A program made the translations under genes and the position numbers. Shown here piece after piece: positions 27,229 through 30,885 of a stretch of DNA of 64,000 nt. The notes beneath the pieces are model-generated. The model worked only from the letters and a program-made list of their open reading frames with translations. It was not told where the DNA came from and ran no database searches. The DNA comes from a virus, in the IMG/VR virus record IMGVR_UViG_3300045988_117858, positions 16,865-80,864 of that record; one strand, given 5' to 3'. Position 1 is the stretch's first letter; each line of letters begins with the position of its first letter.

Positions 27229-27780
27229 ATGAAAATATTAATTGTCGTCGATATGCAGAATGACTTCATCGACGGAAGCCTTGGAACCAAAGAAGCACAG
27301 GAGATCGTTCCAAAAGTTGTTGAGAAGATAAATTCGTTCGATGGGCGTCTTATTACAACATATGATACTCATTTTGAAGATTATCTATCAACACAGGAAG
27401 GTAAAAAATTACCAGTAGAACATTGTCTTCTTGGTACCAATGGGTGGCAGCTCCATCCAGACGTACAACAAGCTTTGCAGACAAATGGATGGGAATATAA
27501 TGGTTTGAATGACTATCATAAAATGTCTTTTGGGTCTACCGACTTGTTTTTTGATTATTGTTTATTACACAAAGAGCAAAAAGAAATAATTAAAAGTATT
27601 ACATTAATCGGTCTTTGTACAGATATTTGTGTAATTTCAAACGCAATGTTATTAAAAGCAGCGTTACCAGAAGCAAAGATTATCGTAGATGCTTCCTGCT
27701 GTGCTGGTGTAACTCCAGAGAGCCACAAGAACGCACTCGAAGCAATGAAAATGTGTCAAATTGAAGTAATTAATGAATAA
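27229..27780 (+). CDS. pncA: nicotinamidase (isochorismatase-family cysteine hydrolase, PncA-like)
   Basis: ILIVVDMQNDF; TYDTHFEDY...LPVEHCLLGTNGWQLHP (PncA metal-site D/H/H pattern); catalytic Cys in LIGLCTDICV. Confidence 0.8.
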   Translation: MKILIVVDMQNDFIDGSLGTKEAQEIVPKVVEKINSFDGRLITTYDTHFEDYLSTQEGKKLPVEHCLLGTNGWQLHPDVQQALQTNGWEYNGLNDYHKMSFGSTDLFFDYCLLHKEQKEIIKSITLIGLCTDICVISNAMLLKAALPEAKIIVDASCCAGVTPESHKNALEAMKMCQIEVINE

Positions 27781-27794
27781 AGGGGTAATAAAGA

Positions 27795-28631
27795 ATGATT
27801 AGTATTAATGGAGTCCCAGTTGTTCCAGAATCTTTTCCAGATGGAACGCAAAAAATTGATTTTTCGTTAGGTGTGATATCTCAAGAAATCATAGAAAACA
27901 AGACAGTGTATATCACATGGTTATATGAGTCAGATCAAGAGTTGTTTTCTTTGTTGTGTATTTCTAAAAATATTAAAGAACATTTTCCGTGGTTACAACA
28001 AGCATTAGTGATGCCGTATATACCAAATGCAAGATTTGACAGAGTAAAAGAGCCAAGCGAATGCTTTACATTAAAATATTTTGCAGAAATTATTAATAGT
28101 CTGGGATTTGTACGAGTTATTGTAACTGATCCACATTCCGATGTATCTACTGCATTGATTGATCATGTAGAAGTAATTCGTGGAGCATCATATATCACAC
28201 AAACTTGCTGCAAAGTCCTTAAAGCAGAGTCATCAAGAAATCTTGTAATTTATTTTCCAGATAGCGGATCACTAAAAAGATATTCTGAATTTGTATCAGA
28301 TGATTATCCGATTGTCTATGGAATTAAAAATCGTGATTGGAAGACAGGAGAAATTCTTGGTATTGAGATTCATGGAGATACAGATAAATTAGATGAGAAT
28401 ACAGCAATTCTAATGATTGATGATATTTGTAGTAAGGGTGGCACATTCTATTATGGATCAAAAGAATTAAACAAATACGGTTGTAAAGATATGTATTTAT
28501 ACGTTAGTCACTGTGAAAATACAATTCTTGATGGCGAATTATTAAAAGAAGATAGTTTGTTTAAAAAAGTGTATACGACACGTAGTATTTTTACAAAAGA
28601 ACATGAGAAAGTTGAGGTGTTAGATTTATGA
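27795..28631 (+). CDS. divergent ribose-phosphate pyrophosphokinase (Prs) homolog, candidate ADP-ribose pyrophosphokinase (Adps-like)
   Basis: MPYIPNARFDR in place of the Prs signature IPYFGYARQDR; VIVTDPHSD (Prs DLHA region); PRPP-binding-loop-like AILMIDDICSKGGT; stop overlaps next start (ATGA). Confidence 0.65.
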   Translation: MISINGVPVVPESFPDGTQKIDFSLGVISQEIIENKTVYITWLYESDQELFSLLCISKNIKEHFPWLQQALVMPYIPNARFDRVKEPSECFTLKYFAEIINSLGFVRVIVTDPHSDVSTALIDHVEVIRGASYITQTCCKVLKAESSRNLVIYFPDSGSLKRYSEFVSDDYPIVYGIKNRDWKTGEILGIEIHGDTDKLDENTAILMIDDICSKGGTFYYGSKELNKYGCKDMYLYVSHCENTILDGELLKEDSLFKKVYTTRSIFTKEHEKVEVLDL

Positions 28632-30097
28632 AACAGACAAATCCAATGTTATTAATTGATTTTTATAAAGCAGTTCATGCTGAAATGTTACCAAAAGGTA
28701 TTACAAAATCTGTTTCTTATTTTACTCCACGTATGAGCAGAGTAAAACGATGGAATGAAGTAGCCATGTTTGGATTACAAGGATTCATTAAAGAGTATTT
28801 GGTCGATTATTTTAATGAGTATTTTTTCTTTGAATATAGAAACAAAGCAATTGGTACTTATAAGACAGTAATGGATGCAACTCTTGGAAAAGGTACATAT
28901 GGATTACAGAAAATTGAAGATTTATATGATCTTGGCTATCTTCCGATTGAGATTAAGGCTCTTCCTGAAGGAACTTTAGTACCAATGCATGTGCCGATGT
29001 TTAGTATTGAGAATACTCACAAAGATTTTGCATGGCTACCACAGGCATTAGAAAGTTTAATTTCCGCAGAAATGTGGCATCCGATGATCGCTGCAACTGT
29101 CGGGCATACATATAGACAGATCGTTAATAAGTTTTATGAAATGACTTGCGATGACAATGCCGTAAAAGCTAGAGCATTAGGAGCTTTTGATTTTCGTGGA
29201 GAAGAGTGTTTGCAGTCTGCGGTTAAAGCAGGTGCAGGATGGTGTTTGTCATTCTTAAATACTGCAACAGTGCCAACAATTCCATATTTAGAGAGAAATT
29301 ATAACTGTGATTGTACGAAAGAACCAGTTGCTTTTGGTAGTCCGTCTACTGAGCATTCGGTTATGTGTAGTAATTATGCGATTGACGGAGATGAAGAGAC
29401 TCTGATTAAAAGATTGCTAACAGATATTTACCCAAATACAAGCTTCTCCGCAGTGTTAGATTCTTATGATTATTGGAATGTTGTAGAGAATATTCTTCCA
29501 AAACTCAAGAATGAGATCATGAATCACAATGGATGTTTTCTTGTAAGAGGGGATTCAGGAGATTGTGTAGATGTAGTAACCAGAACGGTATTCAAGTTAT
29601 GGGAAGAGTTTGGCGGAACTACGAATAGTAAAGGATATAAAGTATTAGATCCTCATGTAAAATCAATTTATGGAGACTCAATTACAGTGCAGAGATGTGA
29701 GCAGATTTATGACATCTTAGAGAAGAATGGATTCGCAGCAAGCAATGTCGCACTTGGCGTAGGATCATTCTCATTCCAGTGTATCGAAGAAGATGGAGTT
29801 TTGAAGCCATTTACAAGAGATACATTCAGTAGCTGTATCAAAGCAACGTATTGTGAGATTGATGGTAAACCATATCCAATTTTTAAGAATCCGAAAGATG
29901 GTGGATTTAAGAAATCTCAGAGAGGTTTATGTCATGTCTATAAAGGATCAGACGGTAAATTGACATTTAAAGATGGATATACTTCAGAAAATCTTCCAAT
30001 GAATAATCTGCTTGAGACGGTATTTAGAGACGGTAAATTAGTAAAAGAACAGTCATTACAGGAAATCAGAAGAGTATTAAACGAAGGAGAATTTTAA
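28628..30097 (+). CDS. nadV: nicotinamide phosphoribosyltransferase family protein (NadV/NAMPT homolog; possibly Namat-type)
   Basis: NPMLLIDFYKAVHAEMLPKGITKSVSYFTPR, LPIEIKALPEGTLVP, FRDGKLVKEQSLQEIRRVL align with NAMPT-family hallmarks. Confidence 0.85.
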   Translation: MKQTNPMLLIDFYKAVHAEMLPKGITKSVSYFTPRMSRVKRWNEVAMFGLQGFIKEYLVDYFNEYFFFEYRNKAIGTYKTVMDATLGKGTYGLQKIEDLYDLGYLPIEIKALPEGTLVPMHVPMFSIENTHKDFAWLPQALESLISAEMWHPMIAATVGHTYRQIVNKFYEMTCDDNAVKARALGAFDFRGEECLQSAVKAGAGWCLSFLNTATVPTIPYLERNYNCDCTKEPVAFGSPSTEHSVMCSNYAIDGDEETLIKRLLTDIYPNTSFSAVLDSYDYWNVVENILPKLKNEIMNHNGCFLVRGDSGDCVDVVTRTVFKLWEEFGGTTNSKGYKVLDPHVKSIYGDSITVQRCEQIYDILEKNGFAASNVALGVGSFSFQCIEEDGVLKPFTRDTFSSCIKATYCEIDGKPYPIFKNPKDGGFKKSQRGLCHVYKGSDGKLTFKDGYTSENLPMNNLLETVFRDGKLVKEQSLQEIRRVLNEGEF

Positions 30098-30114
30098 GAG
30101 AGGAGATATAAAAC

Positions 30115-30885
30115 ATGAGTTTTAATGCAGCAGAAACCAAAGACAGATTAGTACAGTGGATTAGAGATTGGTTTAAAGTTAATGGAAGATGGTGTAATGC
30201 CGTTGTAGGAATTTCAGGCGGTAAAGATTCATCAGTTGTCGCTGCCTTATGTGTCGAAGCACTAGGTAAAGATCGAGTTATTGGAATTATGATGCCACAG
30301 GGTGTGCAGAGTGATATTGAGTATTCTCAGATGCTATGTGATCATCTAGGAATTGAACATTACACAGTTAATATTTTTAATGCTTGCAGAGATATTAAAC
30401 ATGAAATCAGAGATGAATTAGGCGGTAAATGGAGTAAACAGAGTGCCACAAATTTACCTGCTCGTATCCGAATGGCTACATTGTATGCTTTTGCACAGAG
30501 TATGAATGGAAGAGTAGCAAATACATGTAATTTATCTGAAGATTGGGTCGGATATGCAACAAGATATGGAGATTCAGCCGGAGATTTTAGTCCATTAAGT
30601 GATCTGACTGTGACAGAAGTTAAAGCAATTGGTAGAGTTCTGGGACTTCCAACAGAGTTAATCGAAAAAACACCTACTGATGGATTATGCGGTAAGACAG
30701 ATGAAGATAATCTTGGATTTACATATGATATGTTAGACGAATATCTGAGAACTGGAGTATGTAAAGATGAAGCAGTGAGACAGATCATTGACGAGATGCA
30801 TGAGAAGAATGTATTTAAACTTGCTCCAATGCCTAAATTTATATCTGGCATGTGGATCGAGGCAGGAATGGAGTTGGATGATTAA
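30115..30885 (+). CDS. nadE: NH3-dependent NAD+ synthetase
   Basis: PP-loop VVGISGGKDSS; NLPARIRMATLYAFA; TRYGDSAGDFSPL; EKTPTDGL; LGFTYDMLDEYL are all NadE signatures. Confidence 0.85.
   Translation: MSFNAAETKDRLVQWIRDWFKVNGRWCNAVVGISGGKDSSVVAALCVEALGKDRVIGIMMPQGVQSDIEYSQMLCDHLGIEHYTVNIFNACRDIKHEIRDELGGKWSKQSATNLPARIRMATLYAFAQSMNGRVANTCNLSEDWVGYATRYGDSAGDFSPLSDLTVTEVKAIGRVLGLPTELIEKTPTDGLCGKTDEDNLGFTYDMLDEYLRTGVCKDEAVRQIIDEMHEKNVFKLAPMPKFISGMWIEAGMELDD

Follow-up and report, generated by a model that had tools for sequence, protein, structure and literature searches.

The module and its genes

The DNA analysed here is a stretch of 64,000 nt, positions 16,865-80,864 of the IMG/VR virus record IMGVR_UViG_3300045988_117858, which is referred to below as the window and to which all coordinates apply unless a locus is named. 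Our subject is a group of four genes at 27229-30885 whose products are predicted to act on nicotinamide adenine dinucleotide (NAD+). They encode a PncA-like nicotinamidase (open reading frame 1, ORF1), relatives of Adps and Namat (ORF2 and ORF3), which are the two enzymes of NAD+ reconstitution pathway 1 (NARP1; Osterman et al. 2024, preprint 10.1101/2024.02.11.579819; Namat structure in PMC12774641), and the NAD+ synthetase NadE (ORF4). On balance, we lean slightly towards regarding the four genes as one self-contained, linear and deamidated version of NARP1 that would run via nicotinate adenine dinucleotide (NaAD). The genes are the following:

27229..27780, + strand: PncA-like nicotinamidase of the isochorismatase superfamily, 183 aa (PF00857, catalytic triad, metal site)
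27795..28631, + strand: Adps-like Prs-family pyrophosphokinase, 278 aa (phrog_619, closeness to NARP1 Adps)
28628..30097, + strand: Namat-like transferase of the NAMPT family with an altered pyridine pocket, 489 aa (9w5x match)
30115..30885, + strand: NH3-dependent NAD+ synthetase NadE, 256 aa (TIGR00552, PF02540, PP-loop)

The three junctions consist of a 14-nt gap, a 4-nt ATGA overlap between the Adps stop and the Namat start, and a 17-nt gap, and a GGAGG-like, purine-rich ribosome-binding site precedes all four starts. A promoter and terminator scan of the region 22000-34500 gave a number of sites not above that in shuffled sequence, and hence no operon boundaries were drawn from it. An initial annotation of the window had described four co-oriented genes with short or overlapping junctions, which is confirmed by these values. 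It had also named all four genes correctly, as judged by profile searches and by searches for relatives of solved structure, with PncA standing only as a nicotinamidase-type protein under the PncA cut-off. The co-occurrence search for pncA-prs-nadV-nadE that it had suggested recovered a conserved module.

ORF1 was assigned to the isochorismatase family by a Pfam profile search (PF00857, E 3e-21), and its best relatives of solved structure were the nicotinamidases 1ilw (E 8e-12), 3pl1 and 3o90. Both the catalytic triad (Asp8, Lys98, Cys134) and the metal ligands (Asp46, His48 and His65, which align with the ligands of 1ilw) were invariant across 57 distinct homologues. Within the superfamily, an Asp-His-His metal site of this type is typical of nicotinamidases. 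Only the Pfam superfamily model was passed by ORF1; with 35.5 bits, it stayed far under the cut-off of 174 of the NCBIfam PncA equivalog NF008623, and we therefore regard it as a predicted nicotinamidase-type member of the superfamily and not as a close PncA orthologue. In the homologue search performed with the Namat-like and PncA-like proteins, the top 120 matches listed were close relatives only, and among these matches, Clostridia genes labelled 'cysteine hydrolase/nicotinamidase' were the closest cellular relatives of ORF1 (62-65% identity). Further homologues are gp275 of Bacillus phage G, which belongs to a PncA-PncB-NadD-NadE cluster, and a cellular PncA homologue of Tissierella, whose gene stands alone beside a YjeF_N gene, a setting that says little about function.

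With regard to ORF2, its score against the curated Prs model TIGR01251 was below the cut-off (88 vs 113 bits), and that against phrog_619 was 226 bits. The Adps proteins of canonical NARP1 loci matched it over the full length with 130-156 bits and 32-38% identity, compared to 49 bits for the best solved Prs; a solved Adps structure was also sought by sequence, and distant Prs matches were the only ones returned. A homologue of ORF2 was found at nearly all loci whose Adps position is visible. Together, ORF2 and ORF3 are thus predicted to be an Adps/Namat pair of the NARP1 type, a pathway that has already been described. The last gene, ORF4, is a NadE (TIGR00552, 190 bits against a cut-off of 63.65; PF02540, E 3.5e-57) that consists of a single domain of 256 aa, without a glutaminase domain, and its SGGKDS PP-loop was invariant across 62 homologues.

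The pyridine pocket of the Namat-like transferase

ORF3 matched chain 9w5x with an E-value of 2.6e-115, compared to approximately 1e-49 for human NAMPT. The residues named in PMC12774641 all match the amino acids of this chain, and on this basis, it was taken as SPbetaL1 Namat and its numbering was transferred. The identity between ORF3 and SPbetaL1 Namat was 44%, and two NAMPT-family profiles scored 437 bits (NF006629) and 529 bits (phrog_448). The NCBIfam label for the family of ORF3 is nicotinate phosphoribosyltransferase.

In SPbetaL1 Namat, Asp215 hydrogen-bonds the amide of nicotinamide (PMC12774641), and its equivalent in human NAMPT, Asp219, has been cited as a determinant of substrate specificity (PMC7096376). 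In the protein of the window, Ala213 replaces this Asp215 and Ser240 replaces the pocket residue Ala242 (SPbetaL1 numbering for the replaced residues), and the crystal structure of SPbetaL1 Namat puts both changed residues inside the pocket. By contrast, the equivalents of Phe189, Arg192, Arg306, Asp308, Arg399, Asp400, Asp13 and Tyr15 are unchanged. When aligned by hhalign (probability 91%), the Ser of 'GSTSN' in a nicotinate phosphoribosyltransferase of the PncB type, gp277 of phage G, fell on Asp215. The D219S variant of human NAMPT is said to gain nicotinic-acid activity. Across 79 module loci, position 215 was Ala in 73 and Ser in 6, with Asp or Glu in none.

The clamp residues Arg40 and Phe392 of SPbetaL1 Namat are kept in ORF3 as Arg38 and Phe381, and the equivalent of Arg40, the stacking residue of the clamp loop, was Arg in 72 of the 79 module loci. 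The Namat signature GSX-Phi-X-Phi-X-Phi-TRD is interrupted in ORF3, where it reads GSFSFQC, followed by a 9-aa insert (IEEDGVLKP) and FTRD, with Phe at position 3 and Cys at position 7 (Tyr396->Cys). In some altered-pocket members, such as that of phage phAss-1 and the protein P0263 (protein representatives are designated by P and loci by L), the clamp signature is fully canonical. As a separate observation, many of the Namat/NAMPT-family representatives among P0243-P0390 reach lengths of 550-1100 aa, and their match to the query is split into two or three stretches, with an interruption close to residue 318. This pattern suggests that a recurrent site has received large insertions, either inteins or inserted domains.

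Pocket state and partner genes across loci

Loci were gathered in three sets: 79 from IMG/VR with the window protein as query, 80 obtained with an alignment headed by SPbetaL1 Namat, and 61 from species-representative genomes. Partner genes were scored on stop-to-stop ORFs by means of profiles of the module proteins, and the pocket residues were taken from the profile alignments. The association between pocket state and partner genes, restricted to loci for which 4 kb or more of sequence was visible on each side, was as follows:

Ala/Ser215 + Ser242 pocket (altered), n = 102: PncA and NadE, 97; NadE only, 2; PncA only, 2; neither, 1
Asp/Glu215 + Ala242 pocket (canonical), n = 55: PncA and NadE, 0; NadE only, 0; PncA only, 0; neither, 55

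At least one of PncA and NadE was thus present at 101 of the 102 loci with the altered pocket. This association (Fisher p ~1e-37, with shared ancestry not corrected for) holds down to 32-49% Namat identity. All four module genes were found together at approximately 140 loci, and their linkage outlives changes in gene order (L002, L064, L228). The 150 best clusters, taken from 1.84 billion representatives (cluster representatives at 50% identity), showed the residues D/A at positions 215/242 in 95 cases, E/A in 1, A/S in 30, S/S in 16 and V/S in 1, with 3 exceptions, an almost perfect co-variation of the two positions; since many of these representatives display the altered pocket, this enzyme family is large. 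Homologues of PncB and NadD, for which phage G queries were used, were absent from the 64-kb window and from every module locus. A megablast search of the module against 50,697 phage records gave no match, and its relatives were found by protein-level searches only.

The last step is also retained where the NadE gene itself is not. At L188, L195, L198, L203, L205 and L207, an ORF of about 657 aa holds the position of the 256-aa NadE, and the two of these six that were tested, L188 (11648-13621) and L205 (11820-13790), encode two-domain glutamine-dependent NAD synthases (NF002730, 760 and 764 bits, cut-off 473). This swap indicates that the retained function is NaAD amidation and not a particular gene. 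Furthermore, P0293 (L233:6001-8598) is an 865-aa natural fusion of a Namat-like enzyme, with a Ser/Ser pocket, and NadE, and PncA lies directly upstream of it. Read-through caused by stop-codon recoding was considered as an artefactual origin of P0293 and rejected; the fusion is probably real, because the fetched copy translates in the standard code and a second assembly has a cluster member of 865 aa. A 510-aa Pribosyltran protein and T4-type RNA ligases are encoded near the fusion in L233.

Phage and chromosomal copies of the module

In agreement with the initial annotation, the copy in the window is phage-encoded, and the phage is one of the gut. Profile searches placed the module's neighbours in the phage-only PHROG families 1735, 2018, 20092 and 20678, and the module is part of a co-directional array with anti-repressors, a DnaB-like helicase, RecJ, a large DNA polymerase and an exonuclease V/Dda-like helicase. 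In IMG/VR, approximately 30 viral contigs, many of them of 140-170 kb, are 94-99% identical at the Namat gene, with values of 97-99% for contigs of roughly 160 kb. An Anaerostipes isolate assembly encodes a protein 98% identical to the Namat-like enzyme of the window, and related contigs were binned mainly with Lachnospiraceae and other Clostridia.

Nearly all long ORFs of the window lie on the + strand, and no tRNA genes were present within its 64 kb. The anti-repressor genes, of the Ant-like type, stand in tandem at 9488-10855 and 11408-12502, and the replication genes, including that for a 1077-aa DNA polymerase, form a block at 53847-63756. Some 400 nt downstream of the module, at 31286-32746, there is a gene for a 486-aa SPFH/Band 7 flotillin-like protein. 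Comparison of the module (27229-30885) with those of the phages near-identical to the window (L003-L030) revealed a mosaic divergence inside it, with identities of 94-99% for Namat, either 98-99% or 64-68% for PncA, 71-99% for Adps and 86-100% for NadE, which suggests frequent allele replacement by recombination.

The same operon is found in bacterial chromosomes. In 'Bacterium 0.1xD8-71' (L179:8627-13219), pncA-adps-namat-nadE is followed by an NrtR-like gene, with dnaE and pfkA on one side and genes for a SpoU methylase, proC, ornithine carbamoyltransferase and birA on the other. Similarly, the complete chromosome of Mogibacterium pumilum harbors the module and an NrtR-like gene without phage-like flanks. 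Genes combining a Nudix domain with an NrtR winged helix adjoin the module in 37 genome-derived loci (among L164-L221; also L217:8551-13446), and an NrtR-like regulator was detected at none of the IMG/VR loci, nor in the window. NrtR leaves the DNA in response to its effector, ADP-ribose (ADPR; PMC2330246). In the tree, which carries no support values, viral copies alternate with chromosomal ones, and it is viral copies that branch off deepest; exchange between phages and hosts has been repeated. The host derivation that the initial annotation had set against a phage origin therefore applies in part: since the same operon occurs in Lachnospiraceae and Mogibacterium chromosomes, the cassette is shared with hosts, and the copy in the window is nonetheless phage-borne. 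The description that suits it best is that of a copy, lacking the regulator, of an operon also used by host-related bacteria, and the chromosomal five-gene set looks like a salvage operon outside the standard NAD pathway reconstructions.

Several loci carry accessory genes. A Macro-domain gene, which resembles Adpp of the extended pathway NARP1-AP, lies inside the module at 19 loci, including L002:6568-7194. L031:9482-10240 and 14 other loci encode a 251-aa protein with a C-terminal DxDxT-like motif (DFDDT) and no Pfam match, the position of which is taken in phAss-1 by a small gene with a weak HAD-phosphatase match. Other insertions in the module or next to it encode an AAA/nSTAND3-like ATPase, placed either between Adps and Namat or ahead of them, a nucleoside 2-deoxyribosyltransferase-like protein and two further families of 120 aa and 144 aa; accessory genes of the module were also located at L230:8871-9986 and L228:161-1264. 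In addition, an SPFH gene with 25% identity to that of the window follows downstream of the chromosomal operon of L179 at a distance of a few kb (16761-17693), which may be a coincidence.

A proposed linear route through NaAD

In the mechanism that we propose, host NADase defence effectors would cleave NAD+ to ADPR and nicotinamide. PncA would then convert nicotinamide to nicotinate and NH3, and the Prs-like Adps would use ATP to convert ADPR to ADP-ribose pyrophosphate (ADPR-PP). The retuned Namat would combine nicotinate and ADPR-PP directly into NaAD, with release of pyrophosphate, and NadE would finally turn NaAD, NH3 and ATP into NAD+. The NH3 released by PncA would balance the NH3 used by NadE, and the net conversion would be that of ADPR, nicotinamide and 2 ATP to NAD+, with host PncB and NadD unneeded. 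Nicotinate and ADPR-PP as substrates, NaAD as product and the anti-defence role are all predictions from sequence and gene context. One linear NaAD pathway that dispenses with host PncB and NadD is favoured because the pocket change, the competition by PncA, the fusion, the displacement of NadE and the operon position combine in its support. A broader proposal, in which we place even confidence, is that the transferase of the module would be a nicotinate ADP-ribose transferase, an activity not yet described, which together with PncA, Adps and NadE would make up a fourth NAD+ reconstitution pathway, with two roles: in the chromosomes of gut Clostridia, that of an NrtR-linked operon for the recycling of ADP-ribose, and in their large phages, that of a counter-defence cassette without the regulator.

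Several points weigh against the linear route. The choice of substrate would hinge on two pocket residues together with gene context, and one ATP more than in canonical NARP1 would be spent for identical net chemistry. Loss of the Asp may have widened the specificity of ORF3 to nicotinamide plus nicotinate instead of switching it. Likewise, the specificity of this enzyme for ADPR-PP does not appear assured, because Tyr396->Cys and the 9-aa insert interrupt the Namat signature, and Ser190, which contacts the phosphate of nicotinamide mononucleotide (NMN) in SPbetaL1 Namat, is Asp in ORF3. At five well-covered loci (L025, L041, L178, L209 and L221), PncA, NadE or both were not nearby. Finally, in neighbour-joining trees, the altered-pocket enzymes form a single clade, at the base of which phAss-1 sits on a long branch, and the Fisher p value consequently overstates the independent evidence; the pocket change probably had no more than one or two origins, and the association may stem from one or two evolutionary events. 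Several independent origins of the change were considered as well, and in view of the single clade, they are not claimed. As to what the deamidated route might offer, we can only speculate that the active PncA of clostridial hosts would leave little free nicotinamide, that the charged nicotinate would be retained in the cell better than nicotinamide, or that the NadE step would render the rebuilding of NAD+ irreversible.

The initial annotation had envisaged an amidated Prs/NAMPT pair alongside a redundant deamidated route, the middle steps of which would be supplied by PncB and NadD of the host. A parallel arrangement of this kind, in which Adps and Namat would rebuild NAD+ from nicotinamide (or from both nicotinamide and nicotinate) and PncA and NadE would boost the Preiss-Handler route of the host, strikes us as unlikely. 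It is in keeping with the strong Namat homology and intact catalytic core of ORF3, with the occurrence of NadE alone in many marine phages, with the few module loci that lack PncA or NadE, and with the consideration that loss of the hydrogen bond from Asp need not end the use of nicotinamide. The host could also supply the remaining enzymes, given that, to our knowledge, hosts universally possess NadD and NadE and usually PncB. However, PncA and NadE occurred at none of the 55 canonical NARP1 loci, all module enzymes are changed at the two co-varying pocket positions, PncA would drain the nicotinamide required by Namat, and a fusion of Namat to NadE would have no rationale if their reactions were not consecutive. 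Moreover, phage G, which is on the deamidated route, encodes PncB and NadD itself, and in the module, adps-namat occupies the operon position of pncB-nadD. The redundant cassette with host-supplied middle steps is thus opposed by the pocket change, the canonical loci, the fusion, the displacement of NadE and the operon position, and the single linear pathway via NaAD is preferred to it.

The disrupted clamp motif of the window protein (Tyr396->Cys, 9-aa insert) also fits a route based on phosphoribosyl pyrophosphate (PRPP), in which the Prs-like protein would be a true PRPP synthetase, the NAMPT-like enzyme would make nicotinate mononucleotide (NaMN), host NadD would convert it to NaAD and the phage NadE would finish the synthesis; the phage genes would then amount to a Preiss-Handler set short of NadD alone. 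In vitro, SPbetaL1 Namat can still make NMN from PRPP (PMC12774641), and NCBIfam names the protein a nicotinate phosphoribosyltransferase. We nevertheless judge this route improbable, as the Prs-like protein is far closer to the Adps of NARP1 than to Prs, the equivalents of Arg40 and Phe392 are conserved and some altered-pocket members have the canonical clamp, the module is linked to Macro/Adpp-like genes and to the ADPR-sensing NrtR, the fusion to NadE would bypass the NadD step, and NadD was found at none of the module loci. Phages do target NAD-derived signals (preprint 10.64898/2026.05.28.727677), and NaAD too relieves NrtR binding in vitro (PMC2330246), so that the module might serve mainly to disturb NAD-derived immune signalling or nicotinamide-dependent regulation, through removal of nicotinamide or through NaAD-type molecules, and not to restore NAD+. 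This seems very improbable to us: NadE or its glutamine-dependent equivalent is kept at almost all loci, so that NAD+ would be the end product, and the identical operon stands among bacterial housekeeping genes under an NAD regulator.

Comparison with known NAD+ pathways

Depletion of NAD+ is widely used as a defence against phages, and descriptions of the three phage reconstitution pathways NARP1-3 date from 2024 onwards. If the linear route through NaAD is correct, it would add a new transferase chemistry, from nicotinate and ADPR-PP to NaAD, performed by a NAMPT-family pocket in which changes at two co-varying positions have shifted the preference from amide to acid, and it would tie phage counter-defence to an NrtR-adjacent chromosomal salvage operon of abundant human-gut Lachnospiraceae. 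NAD-pathway reconstructions of gut microbes, in which the genes are currently labelled 'nicotinate phosphoribosyltransferase', 'ribose-phosphate pyrophosphokinase' and 'cysteine hydrolase', would then be revised. NARP1, NARP1-AP, NARP2, NARP3 and the bacterial two-gene NARP1 are already published, and public records already annotate phage NadE and the Preiss-Handler genes of phage G. In line with the initial annotation, which had supposed the module to be previously undescribed, a NARP1 flanked by PncA and NadE, a nicotinate-using Namat and NaAD as a NARP intermediate were unmentioned in the papers searched, including the supplementary files of NARP1-AP and a survey of viral NAD+ systems, a search that was incomplete and leaves room for a prior description. 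The same four genes, with the altered pocket, are present in phAss-1 (L001, OQ749652.1: 96860-101298; genetic code 15), whose paper names a 'nicotinamidase' solely within a table that compares gene differences and whose record annotates the NadE homologue as a hypothetical protein.

As in NARP1, an Adps of the Prs-like type and a Namat-family transferase are adjacent, in phages as well as in bacterial chromosomal copies, and the transferase is closer to Namat than to NAMPT, with its core and the clamp residues Arg40 and Phe392 conserved. Unlike NARP1 enzymes, which have Asp/Glu and Ala in the pocket, those of the module carry Ala/Ser215 and Ser242, and in most of them the clamp helix is changed. 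The module pair is nearly always accompanied by a nicotinamidase and an NAD synthetase, in contrast to the canonical pair (0 of 55), and the predicted product of its transferase is NaAD instead of NAD+. NARP1-AP comprises NARP1 and Adpp, a Macro-domain ADPR-1''-phosphate phosphatase (preprint 10.64898/2026.01.28.702374), and the module resembles it in being an extended NARP1 operon that includes a Macro gene in 19 loci. However, the extension of NARP1-AP is on the ADPR side, whereas that of the module is on the pyridine side, with PncA acting before and NadE after the transferase, and the module of the window has no Macro gene.

The prs-nadV operons that NrtR regulates in gamma-proteobacteria (PMC2330246), and that are today interpreted as bacterial NARP1, share with the module a chromosomal, NrtR-linked pair of Prs-like and NadV-like genes and differ from it in lacking pncA and nadE. 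In the distant bacterial NadV-like genes that were sampled (L218-L220), the pocket is still Asp/Ala, and module partners were absent from their vicinity. NARP2 (NadV and NMNAT) and NARP3 (PnuC and NadR; PMC13464706) are likewise means of phage-encoded NAD+ restoration, but they employ other enzymes, with NMN or nicotinamide riboside as intermediates and no NaAD step.

With respect to gene order, the closest parallels considered are the cluster of phage G, in which genes for a PncA-like protein, PncB, NadD and NadE follow one another with other genes interspersed (L162, 200123-207372), and the Clostridium acetobutylicum operon nrtR-pncA-pncB-nadD-nadE (PMC2330246). Phage G apparently has a complete Preiss-Handler route, besides a Nudix protein homologous to the NrtR-like genes and a KptA-like RNA 2'-phosphotransferase, and its record names the PncA-like, PncB and NadD products only as gpNNN, with the function given in the note. 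The PncA and NadE proteins of phage G are homologous to those of the module (68 and 126 bits against the module profiles). Both clusters resemble the module in that PncA comes first and NadE last, with a link to NrtR or Nudix proteins. They differ from it in the middle, where adps-namat stands in place of pncB-nadD, which lead from nicotinate and PRPP to NaMN and then to NaAD. The source of the ADP-ribosyl moiety would accordingly be ADP-ribose in the module, as predicted, and PRPP plus ATP with pncB-nadD, and both would yield NaAD.

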